A stretch of DNA of 24,000 nt, from positions 1,471,380 to 1,495,379 of the forward strand of contig OZ242345.1 in assembly GCA_965208605.1 (NCBI GenBank). Reading direction: 5' to 3'. This document shows positions 4,146 through 23,765 of the stretch, one piece after another (position 1 is the first letter of the stretch; each line of letters opens with the position of its first letter). The notes under the pieces were generated by a model. That model saw only the letters and a list, made by a program, of their open reading frames with translations, searched no databases and was not told the DNA's origin. The DNA comes from Candidatus Azotimanducaceae bacterium (GTDB lineage Bacteria > Pseudomonadota > Gammaproteobacteria > Pseudomonadales > Azotimanducaceae). The position numbers and the translations under genes were made by a program.

Positions 4146-4183
4146 CTTCAAGACTCACAGGCTTGCGGTAAGTATCTGTCTAA

Positions 4184-5749: not shown

Positions 5750-7054
5750 TTAGGAATTACGTTCATCAATGACCCGGACGGCCTTACCTTCAGAACGAGG
5801 TACGCCCCCCGGTTCACATATATCTACTTGGGTTGTTACACCCACGTAAGCTTTTATATCGCTTTGCAGTTTCTGCTTGATGTTATCGTTCTCTTTCACC
5901 GGAATTGAGGGCTGGCGTTCAACCATGACATTAAGCCTATCCAGATTACCTTCGCGAATCACGTGCAGTTGGTAGTGAGGCGATAGACCGTCTACCTTTA
6001 GAACACATTCCTCAATTTGTGAAGGGAAAACATTAACGCCGCGAATAATCAGCATATCATCACTGCGCCCGGTAATCTTTTCCATACGGCGCATCGTTCG
6101 AGCTGTACCAGGCAACAGTCTTGTTAGGTCACGAGTGCGATAACGAATTACAGGTAACGCTTCTTTGGTCAATGAAGTAAATACTAACTCCCCTAGTTCG
6201 CCGTCTGGTAAAGGCTCGCCATTTGTTGGATCAACAATCTCTGGGTAGAAATGATCTTCCCAAATCACTGGCCCGTCCTTTGTTTCAATACATTCGTTCG
6301 CTACTCCGGGGCCCATTACCTCTGACAAACCATAAATATCTACGGCATCCAAATTACAGCGTTGCTCTATCTTTTGGCGCATTGATTCGCCCCAAGGCTC
6401 AGCTCCAAAAATACCGACACTCAGCGATGACGATGCCGGGTTCAGTCCCTGACGTTCAAACTCATCGGCCAAATTGAGCATGTACGAAGGCGTACACATT
6501 ATGATATCTGGTCGAAAATCTTCTATGAGCTGAACTTGTTTTTGGGACTGGCCACCGGACATAGGGATAACCATGGCACCGAGCTTTTCAGCACCATAGT
6601 GTGCACCCAATCCGCCGGTAAACAGGCCGTAACCATAGGCCACGTGAATCTTGTCGCTTGACTGGCCTCCGCTTGCTCGGATGGAACGCGCACAAACCTT
6701 CGCCCAGGTTTCAATATCATTACGTGTATAAGCGACAACCGTCGGCTTGCCGGTTGTTCCACTTGAGGCATGAATCCTAACGACATCTGTCTCTGGTACT
6801 GCTAACAGACCAAAGGGGTAGTTTTGACGAAGATCATCTTTGAATGTAAAAGGGAAATGACGTAGATCATCAAGCGACTTTAGATCACCGGGGGCAATGC
6901 CTTTCTGCTCACATTTTTGTCGGTAAGGCGCAACATTGTCGTAGGTTGTGCCTATTGTTTGGCGGAGTCGTTCAAACTGAAGGGTTCGAATCTCATCAAT
7001 GCTGGCTATTTCAATTGGGTCTAGTGAGGATTTGTCTGGTATACGAGTTACCAT
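5750..7054 (-). CDS. paaK: Phenylacetate-CoA ligase
   Basis: 434 aa. It has the AMP-binding motif SSGTTGKPTVVAYT, YGLSE, and PaaK-type length and C-terminal domain (GRSDDMLIIRGVNVFP). Confidence 0.95.
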   Translation of the reverse strand: MVTRIPDKSSLDPIEIASIDEIRTLQFERLRQTIGTTYDNVAPYRQKCEQKGIAPGDLKSLDDLRHFPFTFKDDLRQNYPFGLLAVPETDVVRIHASSGTTGKPTVVAYTRNDIETWAKVCARSIRASGGQSSDKIHVAYGYGLFTGGLGAHYGAEKLGAMVIPMSGGQSQKQVQLIEDFRPDIIMCTPSYMLNLADEFERQGLNPASSSLSVGIFGAEPWGESMRQKIEQRCNLDAVDIYGLSEVMGPGVANECIETKDGPVIWEDHFYPEIVDPTNGEPLPDGELGELVFTSLTKEALPVIRYRTRDLTRLLPGTARTMRRMEKITGRSDDMLIIRGVNVFPSQIEECVLKVDGLSPHYQLHVIREGNLDRLNVMVERQPSIPVKENDNIKQKLQSDIKAYVGVTTQVDICEPGGVPRSEGKAVRVIDERNS

Positions 7055-7140: not shown

Positions 7141-9546
7141 TCAATATAGCATAAGCTGAGTTTCCGAAACCTCATGCGCCTCTACATCAGCAGGATAAAA
7201 CCAAATACGTTTTTTGCCAAAATCAGAATAAAGATTGATCTGGTCATCAAAATTACTTGCGCGCTCCCCGGCTGGGTTAACAAATGCGTTTTGCCCAGGC
7301 GGTGTTACCTCATAACCGATAATTTCTCCAGGCTTCATTATAATCATATTATTTTCGGTACCGCGATTTTGTTCAAGTGGTGTCATCGTTGGTTGTTGAT
7401 CAAAATCCTGGGGGATGCCTAGAAAATTTTTCTTCGCATAGGGTCTGGGGTCAACCGCCAATTTCCATTCATCCATGGTTGTTCCTTGTGTTTCGGATAG
7501 CAGCTCCAAGGTATTTTGCAGACTCAGCGAAATCAGCTCTATTGCATTAGTACCATTGAGTAAATCAAAATCACCACGGCCATTTAATGACTCAAACACA
7601 GCTTTAAATCCAGCTTGTATATTGGTGCCTGCAGCTGTTGGTTTGCCAGGTTCAGGGTAGCCTGTTGATGCAAAATAGGGATAAATATCGCCCAGATCAT
7701 CCTTTAATGCTTGCTCAATCAATTGCTTCACAAAGGTTCTGAATATGACGGGAGCTGGTCCATCGTAATAGCCATCACCATTCAGGTCCTCGTAATGGCC
7801 ATTCCATTTTTGTAAAATCTGATTGGCCTCGCTTAAATTTTGATCCGAATCGGCCGACTGGTCAATCAGCTCTATCAAATAAACCAGGTGCAGATCGATA
7901 TTGGAGCTGGTTTTAATCAAGCCCCAGGCTTGATCTGCGCTGAATCGGTCTTGTTGTTCAATGACATCATGCAGGTAATCGACCCGGTCAGCTTCGCTCC
8001 AGCTGTACCAAAATTCGTCTGGATTCATCACACCGTATCCAGGCTTGTTATTCCAGTTCGCTAAATAACCACCAACTGGATTCAACACCCGAGGGTTTGC
8101 CAACAAAGGGGGCAACCGCCCTTGCCAATCCATACTGCCGTCGCCGGTAACTGGCAGTCGATTATCATGCCCATCAACGCGTTTAGGATATTGCCCTCCA
8201 TAGAAGTAACCGATGTTGCCATCAACATCAGCGAAGTACATATTGACGTTAATCGCTGATTTTTCTGCCTGCTCTATCCAACTTGCATAGTCCATAGCCC
8301 AGGTTGCATACAACCAGGCAAGCAAGGTTTCCAGTTCTTTGCCGTCCCAAGCCCGTTGTTTGGCATAAGCCGTCAATTGATTGCCGGTATTATTTTCATC
8401 ACGATGAATAATTGGGCCGTGGACAGAGCGGTAGAGCGTCACTATCTCGGATTCTTCGCCAAGCACATCAATAATTTCGGTTCTTGATTCCAGATCAATG
8501 TAAGCACCCTTATACCAGTATTGATTAGAGTTCTCCGGGTTAAGTTGTTCAATGAATATATCAACGATATCGCCTGCCCCCCAGGTACTACCCCAGGCTA
8601 TAGAATCGTTATGACCGAACATGACCATTGGATAGCCAAATGGTGTATTGCCGGCCACATCAATGCCCGCGCCATGCATACCCACTGAATAGACATAGGA
8701 AGGCGAAAACCAACCAAATTGAGGGCCATTAGCAAGTATCGCATTGCCTTCTGACACCTTATCTTTGCCTAGGACCCAACAGTTACTCATGCCAGAAATG
8801 CCTTGCTCGGTGAATGCAATATAGTTTTCTAGAGAGTTTTTAAGACCTGAATCAAATAGCGTTTCATTCATCGTTAGTGCGTCTGGAACCAAGTGATTCC
8901 ATTCTGCCAAAGGCACGGTTGTTGGTGCGTTGTTGGTATATCTTGGGTTCAACAAATCAAACAAGGCAGTAGCTTTATGTTTGCCATGCTGTGTTTCTAA
9001 TGTCTGAAGTATTTTTAAATTGTCAAGTTCAGTATTGAAATCTCCATAACGGTTAGCCATGGTGCCGACAAATATCATAACAACATCATAAGCAGTCCAG
9101 TTTTTCGGTTTAAAACCATAATCCAGAAATTGCTTTGGCATCAAAGTTTCTGGTTTTTTCTCTATTTCTGTCAACCAGGCATTCATGCCATCAGCATAGC
9201 CTGCAAAAACATTTTGATCTTTAGTATCCAATGCCGAGATCTGTTTTCTGATAGATACTGGTGAAAAAATTTGTCTGGCATGCTTGTCAAACTCTATATA
9301 ATCCGGCCCCAGCACTTCAGCAACAAGCCCCTGAGTGCTACGCCGAGCCATATCCATCTGAAACAATCGATCCTGCGCAACAGCATATCCATAGCCGTAA
9401 TAGAGCCCGTAAATTGAATCAGCGTAAATATGGGGCACACCGTATTCATCACGCACGATTCTCACGCTAGGCTCAGGGGAACCCGTTTGATTTTCTGTAC
9501 AAGCAATCAGAGCCATGAGAGCGCAACACAACATTAGTGGTTTCAT
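7141..9546 (-). CDS. pac: Penicillin G acylase-like Ntn-hydrolase (phenylacetyl-amide acylase), predicted lipoprotein
   Basis: 801 aa, colinear with E. coli PGA: IVRDEYGVPHIYA, YGYGYAVAQDRLFQMDMARRSTQG, GTMANR. The beta-chain N-terminus SNCWVLGK...NGPQFGW...GNTPFGYP..FGHN parallels SNMWVIGK...NGPQFGW. The catalytic Ser codon is at 8785-8787. The N-terminus MKPLMLCCALMALIAC carries a lipobox (LIAC). Confidence 0.9.
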   Translation of the reverse strand: MKPLMLCCALMALIACTENQTGSPEPSVRIVRDEYGVPHIYADSIYGLYYGYGYAVAQDRLFQMDMARRSTQGLVAEVLGPDYIEFDKHARQIFSPVSIRKQISALDTKDQNVFAGYADGMNAWLTEIEKKPETLMPKQFLDYGFKPKNWTAYDVVMIFVGTMANRYGDFNTELDNLKILQTLETQHGKHKATALFDLLNPRYTNNAPTTVPLAEWNHLVPDALTMNETLFDSGLKNSLENYIAFTEQGISGMSNCWVLGKDKVSEGNAILANGPQFGWFSPSYVYSVGMHGAGIDVAGNTPFGYPMVMFGHNDSIAWGSTWGAGDIVDIFIEQLNPENSNQYWYKGAYIDLESRTEIIDVLGEESEIVTLYRSVHGPIIHRDENNTGNQLTAYAKQRAWDGKELETLLAWLYATWAMDYASWIEQAEKSAINVNMYFADVDGNIGYFYGGQYPKRVDGHDNRLPVTGDGSMDWQGRLPPLLANPRVLNPVGGYLANWNNKPGYGVMNPDEFWYSWSEADRVDYLHDVIEQQDRFSADQAWGLIKTSSNIDLHLVYLIELIDQSADSDQNLSEANQILQKWNGHYEDLNGDGYYDGPAPVIFRTFVKQLIEQALKDDLGDIYPYFASTGYPEPGKPTAAGTNIQAGFKAVFESLNGRGDFDLLNGTNAIELISLSLQNTLELLSETQGTTMDEWKLAVDPRPYAKKNFLGIPQDFDQQPTMTPLEQNRGTENNMIIMKPGEIIGYEVTPPGQNAFVNPAGERASNFDDQINLYSDFGKKRIWFYPADVEAHEVSETQLMLY

Positions 9547-9590
9547 GGATTTCTCAGTGATAAATAATCAATAATAAAAAAGATTTTGCT

Positions 9591-9628
9591 AAATCAAAAA
9601 GACCGGAGACAGTAGCTGCCCCCGGTCT
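9591..9628 (-). terminator. Rho-independent terminator after TBDR1
   Basis: The minus-strand RNA reads AGACCGG-(15 nt, with an inner 4-bp GCAG/CUGU pairing)-CCGGUCU followed by UUUUGAUUU. Confidence 0.6.
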
Positions 9629-9654
9629 CTTAATATACAGTCTCTTAATATACT
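9625..9654. repeat. Tandem 15-bp direct repeat x2 (GTCTCTTAATATACA / GTCTCTTAATATACT)
   Basis: Read directly from the sequence, 14 of 15 positions identical. The left copy overlaps the terminator stem. The repeat lies between the TBDR1 stop and the acylase gene. Confidence 0.8.
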
Positions 9655-9699
9655 AGCTTCCAAGTGCACTAGGGCATTATGAAATTGGGTAGCGGCTTC

Positions 9700-12048
9700 T
9701 CACTGGAAATTCCAGTATGCTGACAGGCCGAAAGTTCTGGGTGGACCCCAAACACCGATACCGCCAGGGCCAATAACATATTGGTGAGAAATGTAGTCTT
9801 CTTCGGTGAGGTTTTTGCCCCAAAATGCTACTTCCCAGTCTTCGCTGGGAGAAACCCAACCAAGACGAACCTCCAGCAACTGGTGTTCATCGGAGGTGAT
9901 ACGTTGATCAGGGTAATCTTGATGCTGGTCATCGGATGTGCTGTACCCAATACGAAGGTCATACCCCCCCCCCGATTCTGTAGGCAGGTGGTAAGATAAA
10001 GTTAAGTTAGAAGTAACGCGTGGTGCGCGAGTTATGTCGCTCCCAGATACATCCTTTGGACCAGCTGGAAGCTCAATAACGAGATCATTCACTTCAGTAT
10101 CCAGAAAAGCCACGAATCCGGAAAGTTGTAAGTTTGTTGACAGGTTCCAGGTGATTTCTGCTTCTGCGCCTTTAATTTCCGCATCGCCCAGGTTGGCCGT
10201 CACGAAGGTACCAAATGTCGAACCGGCGACGGGACCAAAACGAACGATTTGTAAATCTTCATAATCGGTATAGAAGGCCGTGAAGTTAAAACGGAAGTTA
10301 TCTGTCAAATCACCTTTGTAGCCAAGTTCATAGTTGATCGCTGTTTCTGGATCAACCGGCAACGACGCGCTGGCTTTAATACCTTGAGAACCAGCAAAGC
10401 CGCCACTCTTAAAGCCTTCTGAAATAGACCCAAAAAACATGGAGTCCTCAGTCGCAAAATACTGCAAGGCGATCTTGGACGAGAAGTTACTCCAAGAATC
10501 AGAAGGGTTAACCTCAAAAACTTCAGCAATAATCTTCAAACTGCCGCCAACACCACCGCAGGCGGCAAAGTTCTCAAACCGGGTGCCTACAAGGGACGGA
10601 TCATTACTTGCTACCAAGCCACAGTTTACCGACTCCGCCGTGTAATCTTTCTTGTCATTGGTATAACGCGCGCCAAAAGTCAAATGTAACTGCTCGCTTA
10701 TTTCCCAGGTGCCTTGTCCATAGACAGCGGAGCTGGTTGTTTCATTAGCGGTTCGAGCATACTCATTGCCAACCACAGCTTGAGAGCCAACCTCCGTGAT
10801 ACGGAATGGCATTGAAGGATCAGCAAAGGTACCAGCTTGAGTGATTCGGAAGATTTCAGTCCGCTCAGTGTCTTCAGTAAAGTAATACAATCCAGCAGTG
10901 TAGTTAAACGGTCCATTCAAAGTAGAAGTCCACCGAAATTCCTGAGAGAAGGTATCAATGTCTTCGACGATATCGTCAATGACTTCATCAAATGGCGCAA
11001 TCCCTCCCCCTAGAGGAGCACCAACAGACGCCATTTCCCAATCAGTTTCTGCATGCCGAGAAGCCGTGATGGTGGTTAAGATGCCATTTTCAAATTCAAT
11101 ATCGCCTTGAAGACTGATGCCATTGGCTTCCCGTTTGGAAAATCCATCATAGGATGCCGCATTCTGGCGAGGGCCAGTCACGCCGTTCTGGGCAAGGATA
11201 GCTTGAAGAGGTGCATTATCGTTGACCGGAGTTCGCCCAAGATCAGCGCGGTCATCTTCCATCGTATCAACAGAGAGCAGCCAGTCAGAAGTGTCCGATT
11301 GCCAACGTAATTGACCTCTAAAAGCAGTTTGATCTTCTGTCTGCAGATCTGTACCTAGCACCACATTGCGCACAAAACCATCATGCTCCCGGTGGCTTAC
11401 AGACAATTTACCAGACAGGCTTTCAGACAGCGCACCGCCAAATAACCCTTGATATCGCATAATGCCTTCGTTACCAACTGTCACTCCCAGCTTGGCCGTA
11501 GTGGTTCCGCTAGGCTTGCTGGAAACCACATTGATGGCACCACCAATTGCATTACGCCCAAAGAGGGTACCCTGGGGTCCACGCAAGACTTCAATTCGCT
11601 CTAGGTCAAACATCTCAAAGTTAATGCTGGCACCGCGACCGATATAAACACCATCCAGAAATAGTGCCACCGAGTTGTCCAAGCCCGCGCCATCATCAGC
11701 GGAAGAAATCCCCCGCAATGAAGGAATTGCTTGACCAGGAGAAAACTCCGAGTACGACAGTCCCGGTGTATGCTGAGCAATTCCTGCCGCGTCAAATATA
11801 TCCGCCTTTATAATCGTGTCAGCACTGAGCGCGGTTACTGTAACGGGAACATCTTGAATGTTCTGCGCTCTATGCTGAGAGGTGACGATGATTTCCTCAA
11901 GCTCATAACCCCTGGCTCCCTGTTCTTCCTGTGCAGCGGCAGTTTCTATTGTGGCACCACTCATTGCAACGACACTCATTGCTACAACAATCGCCCAGCA
12001 TCCCCCCATATACGTTTTTTTATTCGTTATCTTTGTTGCATCTAACAT
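9700..12048 (-). CDS. TonB-dependent outer-membrane receptor (TBDR1)
   Basis: It has a plug domain with TonB box LEEIIVTS, then VEVLRGPQGTLFGRNAIGGAINVVS, and a long beta-barrel with the FKSGGF motif. The ORF-track start at 12120 was trimmed to the ATG at 12048, which follows GGGGGA by 7 nt and precedes a signal-like segment (WAIVVAMSVVAMSGA). Confidence 0.9.
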   Translation of the reverse strand: MLDATKITNKKTYMGGCWAIVVAMSVVAMSGATIETAAAQEEQGARGYELEEIIVTSQHRAQNIQDVPVTVTALSADTIIKADIFDAAGIAQHTPGLSYSEFSPGQAIPSLRGISSADDGAGLDNSVALFLDGVYIGRGASINFEMFDLERIEVLRGPQGTLFGRNAIGGAINVVSSKPSGTTTAKLGVTVGNEGIMRYQGLFGGALSESLSGKLSVSHREHDGFVRNVVLGTDLQTEDQTAFRGQLRWQSDTSDWLLSVDTMEDDRADLGRTPVNDNAPLQAILAQNGVTGPRQNAASYDGFSKREANGISLQGDIEFENGILTTITASRHAETDWEMASVGAPLGGGIAPFDEVIDDIVEDIDTFSQEFRWTSTLNGPFNYTAGLYYFTEDTERTEIFRITQAGTFADPSMPFRITEVGSQAVVGNEYARTANETTSSAVYGQGTWEISEQLHLTFGARYTNDKKDYTAESVNCGLVASNDPSLVGTRFENFAACGGVGGSLKIIAEVFEVNPSDSWSNFSSKIALQYFATEDSMFFGSISEGFKSGGFAGSQGIKASASLPVDPETAINYELGYKGDLTDNFRFNFTAFYTDYEDLQIVRFGPVAGSTFGTFVTANLGDAEIKGAEAEITWNLSTNLQLSGFVAFLDTEVNDLVIELPAGPKDVSGSDITRAPRVTSNLTLSYHLPTESGGGYDLRIGYSTSDDQHQDYPDQRITSDEHQLLEVRLGWVSPSEDWEVAFWGKNLTEEDYISHQYVIGPGGIGVWGPPRTFGLSAYWNFQ
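9964..9973 (-). repeat. Homopolymeric G10 tract (C10 on the plus strand) inside the TBDR1 coding sequence
   Basis: Read directly: ataCCCCCCCCCCgatt. It encodes the GGG of ...PTESGGGYDL..., about 90 codons before the stop. Confidence 0.95.
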
Positions 12049-12429
12049 GAAGTATCCCCCTTCTTTAAGAAAACATTCGTAATTTTTTACCTGCATAGAC
12101 ATAGGCTGGAAGCTTCCCAACCTTATTCAGCAAGCAACAGCGGCGGGTATAGTGATTGAAAAATGCAGCGGATGCAAGCCACTGCCACACTGATACGAAT
12201 AAATTCAACAAATTAAAGGTAATATAATTTATTTTTATATCTATTTCTCACTGGTGCTGGCGGCAACCCAGCGCCCCATGAATATCGGAACACCGTTCGC
12301 CGACTGATGTCTGCTTAACTGTCTGAATCTTCCTTCCTGATGTAGCTAGGATGTCACGATAGGCGACTTAAAGCAAAACACAGTCCCGATTGCTTAATAC
12401 CACGTAAGAAAATATGGAAAAAGGCGAAT

Positions 12430-12490
12430 GAACAAGATTTGTTCGATAAGCAAACTGTCCGCTCGCCCTACTCATGCGGTCAACAGTTTG
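12430..12490. repeat. Two adjacent inverted repeats in the divergent TBDR intergenic region
   Basis: The first is GAACAA-GAT-TTGTTC (12430-12444). The second is CAAACTGTCCGC-N13-GCGG-TCA-ACAGTTTG (12451-12490), with 12 paired bases. Function is unknown; it could be an operator or an RNA stem-loop. Confidence 0.5.
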
Positions 12491-12657
12491 TCCTGTTCTG
12501 TCAAAGCATAAAGCTATTGCGATGATGTATTGTGCGTGCCTGCGCTGCAAGCAAGTTATATGTGCGCTTATTCCCATGCTTGAATTCACGATGTAGCACT
12601 AGCGATTGTATTCGATGATAGTGCGCAAATTCTTGATTACTAAAAAGGGTCCCGGTC

Positions 12658-15114
12658 ATGCACACTCTTCAAACATACCTCACACTTATCAATGGGTTAC
12701 GTACAGCAATAGTTGCCGTCGTGACATTAAGCATCCCGCTATCGGTTCAGGCAGTGATGCTTGAGGAAGTTGTCGTCACTGCGCAAAAGCGCGAACAGAG
12801 TGCGAACGATATTGGTATCACCATGAATGCGTTCTCAGGCGATTTACTCCGCGACCTAGGCGTGGCATCCGCGGAGGATATAGCGGTTATTACGCCGGGG
12901 TTAACCGTGAATGAGACCGCCGCGACAGGCGTGCCTCTGTATACAATTCGTGGTGTTGGCTTTCAGGACTATTCCACATCCGCATCATCGACTGTTGGCT
13001 TGTACTTCGATGAAGTGGCTATTCCATACACTGTCATGAGCCGTGGCGCCATCTTCGATGTGGAACGAGTCGAGGTACTAAAAGGTCCGCAGGGTGATCT
13101 TTATGGGCGTAACACAACAGCAGGTCAAATCAATTTCGTAAGCCGCAAGCCAACCGACGAATTTGAGGCGAGGGTTTCTTTAGGTATCGCCAATTTTGGA
13201 ACAGTGGAACTCGAGGGCTATGTCAGCGGCGCAATATCTTCGTCGGTTAATGGTCGCCTGTCTTTCAGAACGGAGCAATCCAGCGAGGGTTGGCAGAAAA
13301 GCACCACCCGCAATGACGAATTGGGTGAAAAAGACATTACGGCTATCCGCGCAATCCTTGACATTGACCTAAGCGAAAACGCCAGCCTGTTACTGAACGC
13401 TCATTATGTTGATGACGGCTCAGATAACAGAGCCAACACGGCCTACGATGGAAGAATTATTGGACAGGCTCTGTCTAACAACCCTTATCTACCACTGGAC
13501 CAGTATGTTATTCCAACAGGTGTAAATTTTGGTGGGACGCCGCCTTGGTTCTCCACAGGCGATAACCGTGCTGCGGATTGGACTAACAGTTATACAAGCT
13601 TGACGGGTCAAGTATTCGATCTTCGACCGCAGCGCGATAATCAACTATTTGGCTTGTCAGCGCGACTGGAGTGGCATTTCAATAATGTTACGTTGACCAG
13701 TATTTCTGGCTACGATACGTTTGACCGTGAGGAAGCTAACGATTGGGATGGTGGTTTCTTCAACGATTCGTCAAACATCAACACCACAGAAATCAACGTC
13801 TTCTCTCAAGAGCTACGTTTAAGTGGCGACAATGAGGAATTATCCTGGATTGCTGGGCTTTACTATTCAAAAGATGATGTGGACGAATATTACCATTACT
13901 TTATGTCGGACTCGGTCTTTGGCCTGGGTTCCATCCCATTTGGCGTCGCATTGTTTGCAACTACCCCCATTCGCGAACTAGACACCAAGTATCAGCAAGA
14001 CACAGATTCTTTCGCCGTGTTTGGTCATGTGGAATGGGAGTTTGCGGAGCGCTGGCACCTAACAGCCGGCTTACGTTATACCGATGAAGAGCGCAATTGG
14101 ACGGGCTGCACATTCGTGGCAGCGGACGGTAGTCTCGCCGGATTCCTTAACAAGTCATTTGGCGCTACGTTACAGCCAGGCGATTGCGGCACGATTAACG
14201 ATGATCCTACCTCACCCAATTTCGTCTTGTTTCTTGCCGGTACGCCGAATGTTAATGACGCCTTTCCAGTTTTCACCTCTAGGATTAGCACTAGTAAAAC
14301 CATGGGGAAAATAGGTGTGGATTATTCCTTTTCGGATGATGCTCTAGGCTACCTCACAGTTTCGACAGGCTTCAAATCCGGCGGTTTTAATGGTGCAAAC
14401 TCCAACACATCAGGGCAACTTCGTCCGTACCGGGAAGAGGAGCTAACGGCTATTGAACTAGGCTTAAAAGCAACCCTATTGGATGGTGCCATGCAGCTGA
14501 ATGCCGCGATATTCAACTATGACTATCAAGACAAGCAGGAGCAAGAGCGTGCTGTCACGTTTGTGGGGAATATTTCTGGCTTGACCAACGTTCCCGAATC
14601 CGAAATCAATGGTTCAGAGCTCGACGTGCAGTGGCAGGTGAACGATGGCTTGTACCTGAGTTGGGGCGTGGCTTTTCTGGGTACTGAAATCAAGGAGTGG
14701 GATGCGGTATCGAATGATAGCAACTACGATTTTGCTAATCTGCAGCCAAATATTATTACCTTTAGTGCTGCTGGCCTTGAACTGGCCCAGGCCCCAGAGG
14801 TTAGCTATCACTTTCTGGCTTCGTACAGCTGGAAACTTAGCAGCGATTGGACTATGGAAGTTGCTGGTGATATCAACTTTCAAGACGACACCACCGGTGG
14901 TGCACAACCCACCGATGCGACCAAAGACTTTACTTTGATCGGTGCTCGAATTGGCGTAACTAGTGCGGACGAAAAGTGGCGCATATTGTTGTGGAGCAAG
15001 AACCTGGCGGATGAGGACTACTATCCGGCAGCATATACGGGTGGTAACGGCCCCTATGTGCGCTCCAATGGCATGCCCCGAACCTACGGAGTCAGCCTGG
15101 ACTATAGCCTCTAG
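12658..15114 (+). CDS. TonB-dependent outer-membrane receptor (TBDR2)
   Basis: 818 aa. Signal peptide (...SIPLSVQA), TonB box LEEVVVTA, plug motif VEVLKGPQGDLYGRNTTAGQINFVS, and barrel motifs FKSGGFNG and YGVSLDYS. The RBS AAAGGG lies 8 nt upstream of the start. Confidence 0.9.
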   Translation: MHTLQTYLTLINGLRTAIVAVVTLSIPLSVQAVMLEEVVVTAQKREQSANDIGITMNAFSGDLLRDLGVASAEDIAVITPGLTVNETAATGVPLYTIRGVGFQDYSTSASSTVGLYFDEVAIPYTVMSRGAIFDVERVEVLKGPQGDLYGRNTTAGQINFVSRKPTDEFEARVSLGIANFGTVELEGYVSGAISSSVNGRLSFRTEQSSEGWQKSTTRNDELGEKDITAIRAILDIDLSENASLLLNAHYVDDGSDNRANTAYDGRIIGQALSNNPYLPLDQYVIPTGVNFGGTPPWFSTGDNRAADWTNSYTSLTGQVFDLRPQRDNQLFGLSARLEWHFNNVTLTSISGYDTFDREEANDWDGGFFNDSSNINTTEINVFSQELRLSGDNEELSWIAGLYYSKDDVDEYYHYFMSDSVFGLGSIPFGVALFATTPIRELDTKYQQDTDSFAVFGHVEWEFAERWHLTAGLRYTDEERNWTGCTFVAADGSLAGFLNKSFGATLQPGDCGTINDDPTSPNFVLFLAGTPNVNDAFPVFTSRISTSKTMGKIGVDYSFSDDALGYLTVSTGFKSGGFNGANSNTSGQLRPYREEELTAIELGLKATLLDGAMQLNAAIFNYDYQDKQEQERAVTFVGNISGLTNVPESEINGSELDVQWQVNDGLYLSWGVAFLGTEIKEWDAVSNDSNYDFANLQPNIITFSAAGLELAQAPEVSYHFLASYSWKLSSDWTMEVAGDINFQDDTTGGAQPTDATKDFTLIGARIGVTSADEKWRILLWSKNLADEDYYPAAYTGGNGPYVRSNGMPRTYGVSLDYSL

Positions 15115-15129
15115 ATGATGAATCCTCAT

Positions 15130-15152
15130 CCCCGGCAATGAGCCGGGGTTTT
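15130..15152 (+). terminator. Hairpin terminator or attenuator between TBDR2 and the amidohydrolase genes
   Basis: CCCCGGC-AATGA-GCCGGGG forms a perfect 7-bp GC-rich stem followed by TTTT. It sits 16 nt after the TBDR2 stop. Confidence 0.65.
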
Positions 15153-15194
15153 ACAGGGTTTCGGAAATAACCAACATCTAGTCGGAGTAGGAAA

Positions 15195-16922
15195 ATGATC
15201 AAACTTGCAGTGCCTTTACTGTTTGCCGGTTTTTGCCTTGGTCTCACAGCTTGCCAGCAGAATGAGCCAGACGACGAAGCAGCTGACACAATTCTCGTCA
15301 ATGCAAACATTCATACCATGGATGCCACGCACCCTACTGCCTCAGCACTGGCGATAAAAAACGGCAAGTACATCTACATTGGTGACAATCAGGGTGCTCG
15401 ATCGGTCGCCAATGCGTCGACTGAACTGATAGATCTGGGCGGCAAAATGCTAATGCCTGGAATCAACGATGCCCACCAACATCCGGTTGAGGGAGGCACG
15501 AAAGAACTATTTGAGTGTAGCTTTCCTTTCACTTCCGGGCCGGATGAAATTTCCAAGGCATTGCGCGCCTGCGTCGCAGCTCAGCCAGATGCTACCTGGA
15601 TACGTGGTGGGCAATTCTCCAGTGACTTTTTTGTCGACTACCCCATGGAATCTCCCAGGCTGTGGCTGGACAATGTATCCGGCAACAAAGCCGTTGCTCT
15701 TGTTGATGACGCCTATCATAACGCGTGGTTGAACACGCGAGCCATGGAGCTTTTGGGCGTAAATGGTGTCGAGGATTTACCCGAAGGCGTTGAGATGGCT
15801 CTCGATCAGGAGGGCAAGCCCGATGGCTTTATGATTGAAGCGTTTGGTTTCCTAAAAGATCAACTCACATGGAGTGAAGAACAATATCGGGCCGCAGTAG
15901 CGCACGCTGTTAAGCTGGCCAACGGGTTTGGCATTACAGGGCTAAAAGCAACCGCGATCGCCGAACCGGAGCTTGCTGCCTTTAAGTCTCTGGCCGAGAA
16001 CGAAGGCTTATCTGCACATGTTGCTGGTGCGATCGCCACACCGTATGGTCATCGTACCGAGGCATTGGATGTGAGCGAATACATTAAACTTCGCGATACC
16101 TATAAGGCACCGAACTTTAACACCAACTTCGTGAAAATATTTATGGATGGTGTGCCCACGGCGGCGCGAACAGCCGCGATGCTTACGCCCTATACCGCTG
16201 CTAAAGAGGGAGAAGAACGCACCCGAGGTCAACTTCACATTACTGCCGAGCTATTGAATCAGGATGTCGTTGCTCTCGATGCGGCTGGCTTTACCATCAA
16301 AATCCACACCGCAGGCGATCGATCAGTGCGAGTGGCACTAGATGCGATAGAGCAAGCGCGAGTCAAGAATGGTAAGAGCGGCGCACGCCATGAGCTAGCT
16401 CATGCCGGCTACGTTGATGAGGCAGATATAAATCGATTTGCCAGCTTGAACGCGATCCCGGATTTCTCCCCCTATATCTGGTTCCCATCACCTATTATGG
16501 ATTCGGTATTAACCGCCGTTGGCGAACGCGGAGAGTTTTACTGGCCTACAAAAACACTATTGAAGAGTGGCGCCAGCGTCGCGCCCGGTTCTGATTGGCC
16601 AGCTGCCGTACCGAGCATGAATCCTTGGCCAGGCATTGAAGCGTTAGTCACCAGAGCTGATCCTTTCAGCAATGGTACGGACACCTTGTGGGCCGACGAG
16701 GCGGTGTCGTTGGCAGATGCGCTCAAAGTTTTCACGGTTAACGGTGCGAAAGCACTCCGAATAGGCACACAGAGTGGCTCTATTGAAATCGGAAAATCGG
16801 CAGATTTCATCGTCTTAAACCATAATCTGTTTGACATAGAGCCAGCACTTATTAGTGATACTGAAGTGCTAATGACGTTCTTTGCCGGTAGTAAGGTGTA
16901 TGAAAAGTCTAATCAGAAATAA
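15195..16922 (+). CDS. Metal-dependent amidohydrolase (Amidohydro_3/YtcJ-like), predicted lipoprotein, paralog 1
   Basis: 575 aa. Lipobox LGLTAC, HxH metal motif PGINDAHQHP, and IHTAGDRSVR, HELAHAG and GSDWPA motifs. The RBS GGAG lies 7 nt upstream. Confidence 0.85.
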   Translation: MIKLAVPLLFAGFCLGLTACQQNEPDDEAADTILVNANIHTMDATHPTASALAIKNGKYIYIGDNQGARSVANASTELIDLGGKMLMPGINDAHQHPVEGGTKELFECSFPFTSGPDEISKALRACVAAQPDATWIRGGQFSSDFFVDYPMESPRLWLDNVSGNKAVALVDDAYHNAWLNTRAMELLGVNGVEDLPEGVEMALDQEGKPDGFMIEAFGFLKDQLTWSEEQYRAAVAHAVKLANGFGITGLKATAIAEPELAAFKSLAENEGLSAHVAGAIATPYGHRTEALDVSEYIKLRDTYKAPNFNTNFVKIFMDGVPTAARTAAMLTPYTAAKEGEERTRGQLHITAELLNQDVVALDAAGFTIKIHTAGDRSVRVALDAIEQARVKNGKSGARHELAHAGYVDEADINRFASLNAIPDFSPYIWFPSPIMDSVLTAVGERGEFYWPTKTLLKSGASVAPGSDWPAAVPSMNPWPGIEALVTRADPFSNGTDTLWADEAVSLADALKVFTVNGAKALRIGTQSGSIEIGKSADFIVLNHNLFDIEPALISDTEVLMTFFAGSKVYEKSNQK

Positions 16923-16930
16923 TTAATGCG

Positions 16931-18688
16931 ATGCCTACCTATAAACTTGCCAGGACTCCAGTTCTCGCAACTATCGCAAGTGTAGTAATGCTAACTGCCT
17001 GTCAGGACTTGCCAGCATCAAAATCAGCTGATTTGATGGTTGTTAATGCGAAAATATATACGCTTGCTGAACCCGAATGGGCCGAGTCGATGGCCATCAC
17101 CAATGGGCGAATTTCCTATATTGGTAGCGTCGAAGGTGCAGAAAAACTGGTCGGACCAGTAAGCCAGCGTCTGGATCTCGACGGCCGAATGGTGATGCCA
17201 GGTATAAACGACGCGCACCTACACCCCGTAGACGGCGCGCTGAAAGCACTCTATCGCTGCAATTTTCCATTTACAGCTGGCCCACTGGAGGTTCAATCAG
17301 CTGTTTTGGAATGTGTTAGAAATAGTGGCGACCAGCAGTGGATTATCGGTGGCCAATGGGACAGCGATTTCTTTGTCAACAACGATGTAGCTTCCCCGCG
17401 CGGTTTACTCGATGAGGTGTCAGACGACAAAGCCGTTTTTTTACGCGCTGATTCCGGCCACGATGCCTGGTTAAATAGCAAAGGACTGGAGCTTGCTGGA
17501 ATAAACAAACACAGCCATCAACCCGAGGGAGGTACGATTGTTCGTGATGAGAAGGGCGAGCCTAACGGGCTGCTTCTTGAAAAAGCGAAGTATGCGGCGG
17601 AAAAAAAGCTTCCCGCCAACACCGAAGAACAATACGTCAATGCCGCCCGAGAATTGATACAGATAGCGAACGCATACGGCGTAACGGGCATGAAGGACGC
17701 TTCGGCAGAAGAAGCTGATGTGAAATCACTAACGGCATTGGCAAGCTCTGGTGAACTCACTGCGCATATGGCGACCTCACTCAGGGTTCGAAAAGAGGAT
17801 TGGACTGCGGCTGGTTTTGATACCAGCCGATTACTGAGGGTGCGGGACCAGTACACAAATAATAACGTCGACACGCGACACGTAAAAATATTCATGGATG
17901 GAGTGCCGACCTCGTCGAGAACAGCGGCGATGCTGATGAATTACTTGCCTGTTTCAGAGCAAGAGCCTGCGCACAACGGGGACGTACATTTTAGCCTTGT
18001 GCAATTGTCTGAAATGCTGATTACGCTGGATGCGCTAGGCTTTACCGTAAAAATCCATACAGCGGGTGATCGCTCGGTACGCATGGCTCTGGACGCCATA
18101 GAAATTACCCGCGAAAAAAATGGCCGTAGCGGTTTACGCCACGAACTTGCGCATGCAGGTTATATCCATCCCGATGATATTAGTCGCTTCCGCCCTCTCA
18201 ATGCGGTCGCGGATCTGTCGCCTTATATTTGGTATCCCTCACCGATTATCGATTCTGTCCTTCGGGCAGTAGGGCCTCGCGGTGAAAGGTACTGGCCGAT
18301 GCGTGCTCTGATAGCAGCTAACGCCCCTATACTGGCGGGGTCAGATTGGCCCGCGGCTGTCTCTAGCATGAACCCTTGGGTCGGCATTGAAGCCATGGTG
18401 ACTCGAGCCAATCCCAATGACGAAACGGAAGGAGAATTATGGCCCGAGCAAGCGCTCTCCCTCGCGGAAGCGTTACGCGTGTTTACTCTGGGTGGCGCTA
18501 AAGCGCTTCGACTGGAACAGGAAACCGGCAGTCTGGAGACCGGAAAGCTTGCCGATTTTATCGTGTTAAATAAAAATCTTTTCGAGCAAGCCAGCAGCGA
18601 AATTGGTAGCACCGAAGTGGAAGCGACTTTCTTTGAAGGCAAGCTGGTTTATAGCCGCGATCAAGTCTTGTTCAACATCGTTCCGTAA
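16931..18688 (+). CDS. Metal-dependent amidohydrolase (Amidohydro_3/YtcJ-like), predicted lipoprotein, paralog 2
   Basis: 585 aa. Lipobox MLTAC, and PGINDAHLHP, IHTAGDRSVR, HELAHAG and GSDWPA motifs. It is colinear with paralog 1, with roughly half of the positions I aligned by eye identical and more than that in the C-terminal half. Confidence 0.85.
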   Translation: MPTYKLARTPVLATIASVVMLTACQDLPASKSADLMVVNAKIYTLAEPEWAESMAITNGRISYIGSVEGAEKLVGPVSQRLDLDGRMVMPGINDAHLHPVDGALKALYRCNFPFTAGPLEVQSAVLECVRNSGDQQWIIGGQWDSDFFVNNDVASPRGLLDEVSDDKAVFLRADSGHDAWLNSKGLELAGINKHSHQPEGGTIVRDEKGEPNGLLLEKAKYAAEKKLPANTEEQYVNAARELIQIANAYGVTGMKDASAEEADVKSLTALASSGELTAHMATSLRVRKEDWTAAGFDTSRLLRVRDQYTNNNVDTRHVKIFMDGVPTSSRTAAMLMNYLPVSEQEPAHNGDVHFSLVQLSEMLITLDALGFTVKIHTAGDRSVRMALDAIEITREKNGRSGLRHELAHAGYIHPDDISRFRPLNAVADLSPYIWYPSPIIDSVLRAVGPRGERYWPMRALIAANAPILAGSDWPAAVSSMNPWVGIEAMVTRANPNDETEGELWPEQALSLAEALRVFTLGGAKALRLEQETGSLETGKLADFIVLNKNLFEQASSEIGSTEVEATFFEGKLVYSRDQVLFNIVP

Positions 18689-18707
18689 CAGGCTGAGGAG
18701 TAGCCCC

Positions 18708-19076
18708 ATGTCAGACCAGGAAATTGAGAAGATCAAAGCGACAGTCTCGTCTTATGTTAGTGCCTGCCGGAAAGCAGACACCGCACTACTTGAATCAGTA
18801 TTTGCGCCGAATGCTTTAATGGTCGGTTATATGCAAGGCGAACTATTGTTTGGCAGTATTCAGCCTTTTGTCGACGCAGTCGCAGCAAACCCTTCTCCGG
18901 ACGCCGCCGGAACAAGCTACCAGACCACTATCTCAGATATCCGATGTGCGGGCGATGTTGGCCAGGCAACGCTAATTGAAACTGGATATATGAGCTTGAA
19001 CTTTACCAATTACTTCCAGTTGCTGAAACTCGATGGTAAATGGCAAATTACGACGAAATCCTTCCACCACAGTTGA
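18708..19076 (+). CDS. NTF2/SnoaL-like small protein (putative lumazine-binding family), function unknown
   Basis: 122 aa from the ATG at 18708, with GAGGAG 7 nt upstream. The ORF-track start at 18603 overlaps the preceding gene. The pattern YVSACRKADTALLESVF...LKLDGKWQITTKSFH is typical of NTF2-like cone folds. There is no signal peptide. Confidence 0.65.
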   Translation: MSDQEIEKIKATVSSYVSACRKADTALLESVFAPNALMVGYMQGELLFGSIQPFVDAVAANPSPDAAGTSYQTTISDIRCAGDVGQATLIETGYMSLNFTNYFQLLKLDGKWQITTKSFHHS

Positions 19077-19244: not shown

Positions 19245-20666
19245 ATGTTAAACCTAGATATGTATGTAAATGGTCAGGCTGTTCAAGGCAGCGAATCGTT
19301 TGCGGTAATCAATCCAGCCACAGGTGCAGCATTTGCAAATGTTCAGGCCGGCGATATAGCACTAGTTGAACAGGCTGTAGGCTCGGCCAAGCAAGCGTTT
19401 GTTACCTGGAGTCAGACGTCCGATGCCGATCGACAGGCGGCGTGCCGCGATTTGGCCGGTGTGTTGAAAACGAATATGCCGGAGCTAATGGAGCTGGTCA
19501 CGCGCGAAACCGGGAAACCCATGGGCGGTCTTAATGGCGTTGGCTCCGGCATGGAGGTTGGTGGTGCTATGGCCTGGGCTCAGTTCACCGCTGAATTGTC
19601 CATCCCGGTTGAACTCATTCAAGACGACGACACAGCGCGGGTTGAAGTTCACCGAAAACCATTGGGCGTAGTGGCCTCCATCACACCCTGGAACTGGCCA
19701 CTGATGATCGCAATCTGGCACGTTATCCCGGCAATTCGAACTGGCAACACGGTAGTACTTAAGCCGTCACCTTACACCCCAGTCGCCACAACACGGTTCG
19801 TCGAACTCGCGCAACAGGTACTCCCGCCAGGCGTATTAAATCTTGTGCATGGCGAGGGTCCTGTCGGTGGCGCACTCACATCGCACCCGGACATCGCCAA
19901 AATTATATTCACCGGTTCTACCGCTACTGGGCGGAAAATTATGCAGTCAGCTTCCGCGAGCCTGAAACGCATTACCCTTGAACTCGGTGGCAATGATGCC
20001 GGAATAGTCCTGCCTGATGTCAAGGTAGCAGACGTTGCCCCAAAACTTTTCGGCGCCTGCTTTCATAATAACGGGCAAACCTGCGCAGCACTCAAGCGAT
20101 TGTATGTGCACGAATCTCAGTATGAAGAAATGTGCTCAGCACTTGCTGAGCTTGCCCAAACAGTCCGGGTGGGTGACGGTATGGAGGAAGATACCGAGCT
20201 CGGCCCGATACAGAATCTTGCGCAACTGAACATCGTCAAAGATCTCTCCCAGTCAGCGCGTACTGATGGCGGGCGGTTTCTAGCAGGTGGAGAGCAAATA
20301 GATCGCGATGGTTATTTCTTCCAGCCTACAATCGTCGCCGATTTGACTGACGGGTCGAGACTGGTTGATGAAGAACCGTTCGGGCCCATTTTGCCCGTAA
20401 TCAAATATACGGACATTGAAGAAGTCATTCAACGCGCTAATCAAAATGAACGAGGGCTCGGAGGATCGGTCTGGTCAAGCGATACAGCCAAGGCTATCGC
20501 CTTCGCCCAACGCTTGGAGTGCGGGTCGGCATGGGTCAACCAGCATGGCGCTCTTCAACCCAACGCACCTTTTGGAGGTGTAAAACAGTCGGGAATTGGC
20601 GTAGAGTTTGGCACCTATGGCCTAGAGGAATATACATCCATCCAGACCTTAAACATTGCCAAGTGA
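19245..20666 (+). CDS. NAD(P)+-dependent aldehyde dehydrogenase (candidate arylacetaldehyde/phenylacetaldehyde dehydrogenase)
   Basis: 473 aa. ALDH motifs are present: ITPWNWP, FTGSTATG, LELGGNDA, the catalytic Cys in NNGQTCAA, and EEPFGPILPV. GAGGA lies 7 nt upstream. There is no signal peptide. The substrate assignment rests on gene context only. Confidence 0.88.
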   Translation: MLNLDMYVNGQAVQGSESFAVINPATGAAFANVQAGDIALVEQAVGSAKQAFVTWSQTSDADRQAACRDLAGVLKTNMPELMELVTRETGKPMGGLNGVGSGMEVGGAMAWAQFTAELSIPVELIQDDDTARVEVHRKPLGVVASITPWNWPLMIAIWHVIPAIRTGNTVVLKPSPYTPVATTRFVELAQQVLPPGVLNLVHGEGPVGGALTSHPDIAKIIFTGSTATGRKIMQSASASLKRITLELGGNDAGIVLPDVKVADVAPKLFGACFHNNGQTCAALKRLYVHESQYEEMCSALAELAQTVRVGDGMEEDTELGPIQNLAQLNIVKDLSQSARTDGGRFLAGGEQIDRDGYFFQPTIVADLTDGSRLVDEEPFGPILPVIKYTDIEEVIQRANQNERGLGGSVWSSDTAKAIAFAQRLECGSAWVNQHGALQPNAPFGGVKQSGIGVEFGTYGLEEYTSIQTLNIAK

Positions 20667-21905: not shown

Positions 21906-22472
21906 ATGGATTGGTTAGCGTTGATTAGTGACTGTCTTGCCTTGTTTTTGTTATGGCTATTTGTCACTGCAGGCATTCACAAATTGCAATACCGAAATAG
22001 GAATTACTATCAGCGAGTAATTTCCGCGTATGGGTTTGATAGCCTGGCAGCATCTTTGAACTTTAGACGGCTATTGGGTCTGTTCGAACTTCTGTTGGGC
22101 ATGACAATCATGGTGCCACTCTGGCGGGAGGTGGCTGCCATCACTGCCACGCTACTGTTGCTCGGCTATTTTGTGTTAATGGCGACTCAGCTCTGGCAGG
22201 GTAAAAGAGATGTTGATTGTGGTTGTGCGGGCCCCATGAGTGATTCAAAAATTGCACCTGCGCTATTGGTTCGAAATGCCTTTCTGATTGTCGTTGCATT
22301 GTTTTGTGTGATGAATGATTCCAGTGCCCTATTCAGTGCTGCTCTCAATGATCGCAGCGCAGCACTGTTTGCGCTTCCTCTCGCGATAATGATGCCCATT
22401 CTATATATGTGTTGTGAACAGCTCATTGTGAATGGTCAGAAACTTCAAAACCTGAAAACAATAAGGTCGTAG
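21906..22472 (+). CDS. mauE: MauE-family membrane protein (amine dehydrogenase maturation)
   Basis: 188 aa with 4-5 hydrophobic helices. It has a DCGCAG motif equivalent to the MauE CGCFG motif and occupies the canonical position after the large-subunit gene. Confidence 0.8.
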   Translation: MDWLALISDCLALFLLWLFVTAGIHKLQYRNRNYYQRVISAYGFDSLAASLNFRRLLGLFELLLGMTIMVPLWREVAAITATLLLLGYFVLMATQLWQGKRDVDCGCAGPMSDSKIAPALLVRNAFLIVVALFCVMNDSSALFSAALNDRSAALFALPLAIMMPILYMCCEQLIVNGQKLQNLKTIRS

Positions 22473-22473
22473 A

Positions 22474-23738: not shown

Positions 23739-23765
23739 TCAGCTGGAAAATCACCGAGGTCTACA

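Follow-up and report, generated by a model that had tools for sequence, protein, structure and literature searches.

Two TonB-dependent receptors paired with predicted lipoprotein amide hydrolases beside phenylacetate and aromatic amine genes: a candidate amide utilisation locus in Candidatus Azotimanducaceae

Among the outer-membrane proteins of coastal marine bacteria, TonB-dependent transporters predominate, and most of them have no known substrate. Much of the marine dissolved organic nitrogen is amide-bound, and the natural role of penicillin-G-acylase-type (PGA-type) enzymes is still debated. Here we describe a stretch of 24,000 nucleotides (the window; positions 1,471,380 to 1,495,379 of contig OZ242345.1, assembly GCA_965208605.1) from a Candidatus Azotimanducaceae bacterium. 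In this window, two genes for TonB-dependent receptors (TBDR1 and TBDR2) stand beside genes for a PGA-type acylase and for two amidohydrolases (AH1 and AH2). They are flanked by phenylacetate (paa) genes on one side and by genes for an amine dehydrogenase (aau) on the other.

The ingredients of this locus are each known from elsewhere. The PGA of E. coli is regarded as a scavenger of phenylacetate amides that is repressed by PaaX, and the link between PGA and the paa pathway is already known. Amine-releasing enzymes are found in the YtcJ branch of the amidohydrolases. This branch includes NfdA of Arthrobacter pascens (N-benzylformamide to benzylamine), as the preliminary description of this DNA had stated, and the metal-dependent bile salt hydrolases (mBSHs) of 2026 preprints, which release taurine from tauro-bile acids, are now also members. 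Both types free a primary amine from an N-acyl amide. The mBSHs are reported to recognize their substrates through a sulfonate-binding Ser/Gln/Asn, and an mBSH is reported not to cleave N-benzylformamide; annotation to the YtcJ branch thus does not predict the substrate. In Sphingobium sp. SYK-6, the TBDR DdvT serves a lignin-derived biphenyl and is reported to provide an outer-membrane uptake step for the intact aromatic compound (PMC6874591). TBDR loci for glycans, and periplasmic amine oxidation leading to phenylacetate, are known as well. We found no description of aromatic catabolism that begins with a dedicated TBDR and a periplasmic amide hydrolase with which it co-evolves. The preliminary description knew of no characterized TonB-dependent system of this kind, and our literature search found no precedent, returning no relevant report of a TBDR with an acylase or amidohydrolase, or of a TBDR with a phenylethylamine or phenylacetate system.

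We mapped the genes of the window by listing open reading frames (ORFs) and scanning them against Pfam and NCBIfam profiles. All the genes were found at the positions first proposed for them. The two TBDR genes were divergent, as originally noticed, and each was followed by lipobox-bearing amide hydrolases: TBDR1 by the PGA-type acylase, and TBDR2 by AH1 and AH2. The closest relative in the collections was a metagenome-assembled genome of 'Candidatus Azophilus sp.' (Pseudomonadales, Ca. Azotimanducaceae), with an AH1 that was 98% identical. On the comparisons given below, the pairings of receptor and hydrolase are real, conserved and co-varying, and both modules recur beside aromatic catabolism in at least eight gene orders. 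We lean, by a modest degree, towards the reading that the locus is a phenylethylamine/phenylacetate catabolon to which two independent TonB-dependent uptake-and-cleave modules for amide-bonded precursors are attached. The gene content, the conserved pairs, the export signals, the intact catalytic residues and the recurrent linkage to aromatic genes are observed directly. The substrate class, the direction of flux, the periplasmic location, the lipidation and the regulation are what we infer from them.

In the first module, TBDR1 would import arylacetyl amides or esters across the outer membrane, and a lipid-anchored periplasmic PGA-type enzyme would release phenylacetate or a close analogue. 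The arylacetate would be taken up by the aromatic-acid transporter of the major facilitator superfamily (MFS), converted by PaaK to phenylacetyl-CoA, and degraded by the Paa enzymes under PaaX control. In the second module, TBDR2 would import N-acylated amines, and the lipid-anchored AH1 and AH2 would cut the N-acyl bond in the periplasm to give a primary arylalkylamine. A periplasmic tryptophan tryptophylquinone (TTQ) aromatic amine dehydrogenase (AADH) would oxidize this amine to the aldehyde, with electrons passing to c-type cytochromes. A cytoplasmic aldehyde dehydrogenase (ALDH) would then turn the aldehyde into phenylacetate, which would join the pathway of the first module. Hairpins 3' of the TBDR genes probably set the ratio of receptor to enzyme transcripts.

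For the first module we examined six annotated contexts with PGA homologs that were 58-98% identical (loci are cited by L numbers). A TBDR1-type gene was directly upstream of the PGA gene in all six. These receptors were 53-67% identical to TBDR1 in L087-L091 and 96% in L086, and they shared only ~28% identity with TBDR2, the level that separates TBDR1-type from TBDR2-type receptors generally. An amidase gene was directly upstream of the TBDR gene in three of the contexts. The order in L090 was aauB-aauA-x-x-DUF485-SSF-amidase-TBDR-PGA-paaK, and downstream of PGA in L087 came a gene for an SSF transporter together with catabolic genes of the hydroxyphenylacetate type. A metagenome scan for PGA relatives gave three short contigs, too short for statistics, with paaK after PGA in L093 and the C-terminus of a TBDR upstream of PGA in L094. 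We also observed genes for an extracytoplasmic function (ECF) sigma factor, a FecR anti-sigma factor and an STN-domain TBDR upstream of PGA in two contexts (L087, 4975-9899; L088, 3294-9880). Cell-surface signalling of this kind is known from siderophore and glycan systems; here it goes with an acylase module.

For the second module, a pattern scan with one genome per species gave 80 loci, with AH homologs that were 44-98% identical. Adjacency was counted over the 73 loci with enough upstream DNA. A TBDR2-type gene was directly upstream of AH in 36 of these and adjacent on either side in 41, and it lay within 10 kb in 49 of the 80 loci. The linked receptors were mostly 58-79% identical to TBDR2, which is high for that family. 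The preliminary description had made conservation of the neighbourhood in relatives a test of its proposal, and we observed that the pairs were kept and co-varied, TBDR1-type receptors going with PGA and TBDR2-type receptors with AH.

Unbiased clustering of all the neighbouring ORFs ranked AH first (75 loci), followed by the TBDR (50), an amidase-signature (AS) amidase (28) and a histone-deacetylase-like (HDAC-like) deacylase (23), the last two being the commonest extra neighbours among the 80 loci. Next came an AraC regulator (17), mauD (13), then ALDH, mauE and a MalT/LuxR-like regulator (12 each), and a CoA ligase and aauB (10 each). An aau or paa gene was present in 21 of the 80 loci, in at least eight different arrangements. 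L005 had the order AH-AH-AraC-ALDH-aau, and L002/L007 (one contig) had the same order with AraC-TBDR upstream. In L034 and L085 the order was ALDH-aau-cytochromes-AraC-AH-TBDR-amidase-HDAC-NTF2, followed by genes of the homogentisate pathway. In L084 (paaX/paaK-AraC-CoA ligase-(AbgT, amidase)-TBDR-AH-paaZGIJABCDE) the module sat inside a full paa cluster. The NTF2-like gene was found in 10 of the 80 loci by tblastn; in the ORF clustering it appeared in 5 loci, always together with a TBDR and the HDAC-like gene. The synteny TBDR-AH-AH-NTF2-ALDH-aau was originally put forward as something to look for across genomes. Its exact order was seen only in the window, and L005 and L002/L007 are close variants of it.

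Several neighbours of the TBDR-AH pair were seen elsewhere and are absent from the window. These are the AS amidase and the HDAC-like deacylase, at the frequencies given above, and an AbgT/SCFA-type transporter (5/80); examples are L084 4463-7230 and L085 8652-11626. Such company may point to substrates that contain two or more amide bonds. The closest relatives of AH1 outside the lineage (L001 1-8466; L003 1557-5918) occur in an AraC-(TBDR)-AH module, next to genes for an APH-family kinase, a class-III aminotransferase, a short-chain dehydrogenase/reductase and an MFS transporter. In L001 the module is also accompanied by a pyridoxal-phosphate (PLP) decarboxylase, MadL/MadM and an amidase. 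Genes of this kind recall amino-alcohol or amine catabolism and would form a different downstream route for the released amine.

The acylase matched the full length of the Pfam profile (PF01804, 427.6 bits, 1.9e-127, profile positions 1-675 of 675). Its N-terminus, MKPLMLCCALMALIAC-TENQ, is a signal peptide that ends in the lipobox LIAC-T (hyphens mark the end of the signal peptide). Both subunits of E. coli PGA were matched (beta ~1e-128, alpha ~1e-69), and PvdQ and the cephalosporin acylases matched far more weakly than E. coli PGA did. Active-site residues were read from an alignment to the PGA variant 7reo, with the residue numbering and residue roles that we take to be those of E. coli PGA. 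S254 aligned with the nucleophile beta-Ser1, and Q23, N241 and R263 (oxyanion/catalytic residues) were retained, as were aM142, aR145, bP22, bF24, bF57, bS67 and bW154. Five positions were substituted. Three of them belong to the phenylacetyl pocket (aF146Y, bA69W and bI177V), and bV56M and bF71A are nearby. As judged by its profile match and residues, the enzyme is a predicted true PGA-type acylase. We also noted that, compared with E. coli PGA, bA69W and bF71A together amount to a swap at two positions of the active site, which may reshape the acyl and leaving-group sites.

AH1 and AH2 also gave full-length matches to Amidohydro_3 (272.8 bits, 1.2e-80, profile positions 1-472 of 472; and 304.1 bits, 4e-90, positions 3-472 of 472), and they are 49% identical to each other. 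The signal peptide of AH1 ends in GLTAC-QQ and that of AH2 in MLTAC-QD. The putative metal ligands (H94/H96, K314, H371, H399/H403 and D467) were invariant across 18 sequences, namely AH1, AH2 and 16 homologs. This is the YtcJ-branch pattern of HxH, carboxylatable Lys, two His and Asp, as described in a 2026 preprint. An AlphaFold2 model of AH1 (pLDDT 86) was closest in Foldseek to the YtcJ-type structures 3ICJ and 3IGH (1.7e-31 and 5.2e-31, TM ~0.7-0.84), with other matches at 1e-17 or weaker. A search for the nearest characterized relatives had been suggested at the outset; in the PDB, a sequence search with AH1 and AH2 matched only unannotated Pyrococcus structures, and the fold search gave nothing functional. 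A lipobox occurs in 87 of the 108 PGA homologs and in at least 70 of the 114 AH homologs, and is thus conserved in both families.

Both receptors have the features of TonB-dependent receptors, with a Plug, a barrel, a signal peptide and a TonB box. The signal peptide and a TonB-box-like motif could be seen in the sequence of each (LEEIIVTS in TBDR1, LEEVVVTA in TBDR2). The likely start of TBDR1 is ATG 12048, behind a strong ribosome-binding site, and not TTG 12120; this gives a protein of 782 aa. A hairpin after each TBDR gene, as first described, was seen on direct reading and on folding, although neither was detected by a consensus terminator scan of the window, whose total count was the same as in shuffled sequence. 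The one 3' of the TBDR1 stop has a stem of ~15 bp followed by TTTTT, and an 80-nt segment containing it folded at -28.2 kcal/mol (RNAfold). The one 3' of the TBDR2 stop is CCCCGGC-AATGA-GCCGGGG followed by TTTT, with a 7 bp stem and a 5 nt loop. A perfect GC-rich stem with a T-run just 3' of the TBDR stop was present in 17 of 29 related TBDR-to-AH loci, which indicates that the feature is conserved beyond chance. We also observed a tandem 15-nt direct repeat (GTATATTAAGAGACT/GTATATTAAGAGACC, 9624-9653, minus strand) between the TBDR1 stop and its hairpin. The second copy reaches into the first bases of the stem, and the repeat might bind a protein or contribute to an alternative RNA fold.

The pairing of receptor and lipoprotein hydrolase had been likened to the logic of Sus-like loci. 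As membership this was not borne out. None of the 18 window ORFs scanned matched a SusD family, and the SusC model TIGR04056 gave 18.7 bits for TBDR2 against a cut-off of 368 and was not among the matches listed for TBDR1. A Sus-like locus was therefore rejected, the TBDRs not being SusC-type, and the likeness is one of logic only.

Table 1. Features of the window, with positions counted from its first nucleotide.
Feature	Position	Strand	Evidence
paaC, partial	below 574	-	cut by window edge
paaB	574-876	-	Pfam
paaA	879-1883	-	Pfam
paaI thioesterase	1925-2368	-	Pfam; NCBIfam equivalog TIGR02286, 133 bits vs cut-off 119
paaG enoyl-CoA isomerase	2371-3162	-	Pfam
paaX repressor	3189-4151	-	Pfam; equivalog TIGR02277, 303 bits vs cut-off 265
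MFS transporter, aromatic acid/H+ symporter family	4388-5743	-	MFS_1; TIGR00895, 360.7 bits, just under cut-off 418.6
PaaK, phenylacetate-CoA ligase	5750-7054	-	equivalog TIGR02155, 698 bits vs cut-off 646
Penicillin-G-acylase-type (PGA) N-terminal nucleophile (Ntn) hydrolase, lipobox LIAC-T	7141-9546	-	Pfam Penicil_amidase
Hairpin + T5, terminator or attenuator-like, between TBDR1 and PGA	9596-9630	-	direct reading + RNAfold
TBDR1, TonB-dependent receptor, Plug + 22-strand barrel type	9700-12048	-	Pfam PF07715 + PF00593
Divergent promoter region TBDR1/TBDR2	12049-12657	.	
TBDR2, TonB-dependent receptor	12658-15114	+	Pfam PF07715 + PF00593
GC-rich hairpin + T4 between TBDR2 and AH1	15130-15152	+	direct reading
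AH1, YtcJ-type binuclear metallo-amidohydrolase, predicted lipoprotein	15195-16922	+	Pfam Amidohydro_3 (PF07969)
AH2, tandem paralog of AH1 with own lipobox	16931-18688	+	Pfam Amidohydro_3 (PF07969)
NTF2-like (Lumazine_bd_2) protein	18708-19076	+	Pfam, 6.4e-23
NAD(P) aldehyde dehydrogenase (ALDH), cytoplasmic	19245-20666	+	Pfam, 2.5e-143
aauB, TTQ aromatic amine dehydrogenase heavy chain	20705-21895	+	
mauE	21906-22472	+	
mauD pseudogene remnant	22473-22704	+	
aauA, TTQ light chain	22705-23217	+	
c-type cytochrome after aauA	23244-23738	+	

The genes that flank the two modules are listed in Table 1. Those of the phenylacetate side form a phenylacetyl-CoA catabolon, with PaaK, PaaX and PaaI over their equivalog cut-offs and PaaA and PaaB recognized by Pfam. 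They are colinear with L086, where paaC, D and E come next. On the other side, the TTQ heavy chain matched the AADH of A. faecalis at 5e-49 and methylamine dehydrogenase at 8e-25, and the light chain matched A. faecalis AADH at 6e-45. By these matches the window enzyme is of the aromatic-amine-dehydrogenase type. The full aauBEDA set is not present in the window: it has the heavy chain, the light chain and MauE, and of MauD only a remnant. The 233-bp gap between mauE and aauA holds only frame-shifted mauD fragments, from which the CPxC thioredoxin motif is lost. The surviving pieces lie in different frames (an N-terminal MALLVISN..., then ...YPYLISEVLG..., then ...HLERLFEAKERKVASIQ...), and fragments align with the L002 protein at residues 126-150 and 173-190. 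L086 has the identical gap with no gene called. MauD is needed for maturation of the TTQ enzyme in methylamine dehydrogenase systems, and given the remnant, maturation may be impaired here or supplied in trans. The preliminary description had seen routes for both halves of an aromatic amide in the window. The phenylacetate half stood (PaaK, PaaX, PaaI, PaaABG and the MFS transporter), and the AADH chains are in place for the other, but that route is compromised by the mauD pseudogene.

Export signals were also noted. The heavy chain (aauB) has a Sec leader, the light chain (aauA) a twin-arginine leader, and the cytochrome a signal peptide with CxxCH; the ALDH and the NTF2-like protein (the real start of whose gene is ATG 18708, not 18603) have no signal peptide. 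Together with the lipoboxes on the hydrolases, this would make a coherent topology for the modules. Two consecutive c-type cytochrome genes follow aauA (23244-24000), the first with the motif YCQGCHG and the second partial, starting near 23766, with CSACHG. They suggest that the electron acceptors of the amine dehydrogenase are cytochromes rather than a cupredoxin.

The sister genome L086 matches the rest of the window at 98.6-99.2% identity and lacks window positions 12793-18494 (~5.7 kb). At the junction (6775-6786), the first 134 nt of TBDR2 are joined to the last ~194 nt of AH2, leaving a remnant ORF of 65 aa. We considered a recent insertion of the TBDR2-AH cassette into the window locus and rejected it, because L086 keeps the start of TBDR2 and the end of AH2. 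These remnants indicate a clean deletion there, and a cassette that is ancestral at the site. TBDR2-AH1-AH2 is thus a strain-level presence/absence polymorphism. A second copy of the cassette, AraC-linked and 94% identical in DNA, occurs elsewhere in the lineage (L004 10001-13399). In this copy an in-frame deletion fuses AH1 (...KVYEKS) to mature AH2 (KAADLIVVNAK...) and removes the AH2 lipobox. The product is a predicted two-domain lipoprotein of 1132 aa with a single lipobox, although an assembly error is possible. The fusion argues that AH1 and AH2 act together.

A number of our observations weigh against the catabolon reading. No aau or paa gene was found within 10 kb in 59 of the 80 AH loci. 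The aromatic genes sit in AraC-regulated AH loci, and the MalT-regulated loci never have aau or paa. The window copy has no AraC regulator, and there is no regulator gene of any kind between TBDR1 and TBDR2 (12049-12657). PGA was found in none of the 80 AH loci; the two modules never occur together outside the window lineage and are therefore independent, combined only there. A scan of the window with WWTRTGATTCGYGWT, which we take to be the PaaX operator consensus, gave 14 matches against 12.7 expected, which is no enrichment, and TGATTC/GAATCA was absent from all the intergenic regions of the window. The operator scan thus offers no evidence for PaaX control of either module. The mauD remnant, found in both the window and L086, may leave the amine branch defective or dependent on a gene elsewhere. 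The deletion in L086 means that TBDR2-AH1-AH2 is dispensable; taken together, the deletion and the remnant speak for an amine branch that the window lineage can do without or is losing. The ALDH, proposed as a phenylacetaldehyde dehydrogenase, scored 401 bits with the StyD model against a cut-off of 850. Its PDB matches were 4QYJ and 4O5H (~1e-92 to 1e-96), and the models for aminobutyraldehyde dehydrogenases scored as high as those for phenylacetaldehyde dehydrogenases. The assignment is thus not specific, and not decisive. Finally, bA69W and bF71A in the acylase lie near the acyl and leaving-group sites, and its specificity may differ from phenylacetyl. The capture and cleavage of aromatic amides, which was the central proposal of the preliminary description, is thus partly supported. 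With 59 loci that lack aromatic genes, aromatic amides may be the speciality of only a subset of the AH loci, with the family acting on non-aromatic N-acyl amines.

If this is taken further, the TBDR2-AH module would serve generic scavenging of N-acyl amines or organic nitrogen and would deacylate non-aromatic amides (acetylated polyamines, N-acyl amino acids, N-acyl taurines). The proximity of aau and paa in the window would then be lineage-specific recruitment or plain adjacency. The loci without aromatic genes, including all those of the MalT type, point this way. So does the fact that the AS amidase (28/80) and the HDAC-like deacylase, which is of the acetylpolyamine-amidohydrolase type (23/80), stand beside the module more often than aau (14) or paa (8) do. 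The kinase, aminotransferase and decarboxylase genes beside the module in L001/L003 are of the same tenor, as is the equal closeness of the ALDH to aminobutyraldehyde dehydrogenase models; and the metallo-BSH relatives release taurine, which is no aromatic amine. We nevertheless consider this explanation rather unlikely for the window. Linkage to aau or paa in 21 of 80 loci, in at least eight arrangements, is far above chance adjacency. In Halieaceae the module is embedded in complete paa clusters, the TTQ enzyme is AADH-type, and L085 links the module to homogentisate-pathway genes.

A further explanation concerns the place of cleavage. The lipoprotein hydrolases could be exposed outside the cell, and the TBDRs would then import the product rather than the intact amide. 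All three predicted lipoproteins are encoded directly after a TBDR, and their +2 residues (T, Q and Q) do not suggest retention at the inner membrane, as judged from the E. coli rule. In Bacteroides, lipoproteins have also been proposed as partners or lids of non-SusC TonB-dependent transporters. Against this, we saw no export factor for surface lipoproteins in the window, AADH as the presumed next enzyme is located in the periplasm, and the small products that are expected would need no TBDR. PGA-type enzymes are periplasmic in the known cases. We regard surface cleavage as improbable, and cleavage in the periplasm is kept in the catabolon reading.

It is more improbable still that the TBDRs are siderophore receptors, with hydrolases that tailor or degrade acylated or amide-linked siderophores in the manner of PvdQ and the marinobactin acylases. 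For both TBDRs, NCBIfam gave siderophore-receptor subfamilies as the best partial matches, but all the siderophore models stayed far under their cut-offs (for example 154 vs 223). Ntn acylases that act on acyl-siderophores do exist; the acylase of the window, however, reached only 81.7 bits with the PvdQ-type model NF051460 against a cut-off of 950 and so falls outside that type, whereas E. coli PGA matches it at 1e-128. The ECF sigma factor, FecR and STN-domain TBDR upstream of PGA in L087 and L088 would also suit a siderophore system. No Fur box was found in any of the TBDR promoter regions with up to 6 mismatches allowed, and none of the contexts had a periplasmic binding protein, an ABC importer or a siderophore biosynthesis gene, the neighbours being catabolic. 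Least probable of all, to the point that we give it very little weight, is the inactivation of antibiotics or signals, in which the acylase, with or without the amidohydrolases, would degrade beta-lactams or N-acyl-homoserine lactones (AHLs) and paa would only take care of the side chain. The acylase is closely homologous to PGA, soil bacteria catabolize penicillin via amidases and paa, and some PGA-family enzymes cleave AHLs, but there is no beta-lactamase in the window, a dedicated TBDR with arylacetate transporters and CoA ligases across marine lineages fits nutrition better, and the AH module and the aau link are left unexplained.

Beyond the window itself, the catabolon reading leads to a wider proposal, which we put forward tentatively and hold at somewhat short of even. 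Marine Proteobacteria (Halieaceae and other Cellvibrionales, Pseudomonadales, Sphingomonadales, Steroidobacteraceae and others) would carry widespread TonB-dependent 'amide utilisation loci'. In these, clades of TBDRs would have co-evolved with periplasmic lipoprotein hydrolases of the YtcJ or PGA type. They would draw N-acyl arylalkylamines and arylacetyl amides out of dissolved organic matter, with both halves going to aromatic catabolism, and cytoplasmic AS amidases and HDAC-like deacylases would often assist. On comparative-genomic evidence that we regard as strong, the locus of the window probably represents a new substrate class for TBDR-centred utilisation loci. If this is true, small amide-bonded aromatics would join metals, vitamins, glycans and peptides as a class of TBDR substrates. 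Dozens of orphan TBDRs and a large uncharacterized branch of YtcJ amidohydrolases would become experimentally approachable, and PGA-type enzymes would gain a defined ecological setting. The same pairings of TBDR and hydrolase in many marine bacteria point to an undescribed feeding route on amide-bound organic matter. The hypothesis is directly testable in cultured carriers (Kineobactrum sediminis, Pseudomaricurvus species, Pseudoteredinibacter isoporae and Pseudomonas segetis).

When compared with known systems, the first module is most like pac of E. coli W. The enzyme is of the same type, with the catalytic and acyl-pocket residues largely kept, the gene lies beside paaK and paaX, and the logic is the same, a periplasmic acylase that supplies the paa pathway with phenylacetate from amides or esters. 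The window acylase differs from it in being a predicted lipoprotein that is coupled to a dedicated, co-evolving TBDR (6/6 contexts), and in carrying aF146Y, bV56M, bA69W and bF71A, with no PaaX operator detected. AH1 and AH2 resemble NfdA and the mBSHs (COG1574/cd01300) in Pfam family, YtcJ fold and binuclear-metal ligands, a comparison made on these features and not by sequence identity. They differ in being predicted lipoproteins that are paired with TBDRs and linked to a periplasmic amine dehydrogenase; neither trait is mentioned for NfdA or the mBSHs in the available parts of those reports, and the term lipoprotein was absent from both preprints.

The overall plan is that of the Sus-like polysaccharide utilisation loci of Bacteroidota and the carbohydrate utilisation (CUT) loci of Xanthomonas and Caulobacter: a TBDR for uptake, hydrolases outside the inner membrane, a transporter in that membrane and a pathway in the cytoplasm, together with a regulator. 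Some relatives of the window even carry ECF-sigma/FecR/STN signalling (L087, L088). In contrast to these known loci, the window hydrolases would cut amide bonds instead of glycosidic ones, SusD is missing, the TBDRs fall outside the SusC type, and the products would feed aromatic catabolism. DdvT is a precedent for a TBDR dedicated to the uptake of an aromatic carbon source. No hydrolase is mentioned in the abstract of its report, whereas the window TBDRs belong to types that are consistently paired with one. The amine branch follows the order of E. coli tynA-feaB-paa and A. faecalis aauBEDA, from periplasmic amine oxidation through an aldehyde dehydrogenase to paa. The electron acceptor of A. 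faecalis AADH is azurin; compared with that system, the window has a degraded mauD, and c-type cytochromes after aauA. To both of these routes, the locus described here would add an upstream amide-cleaving step.

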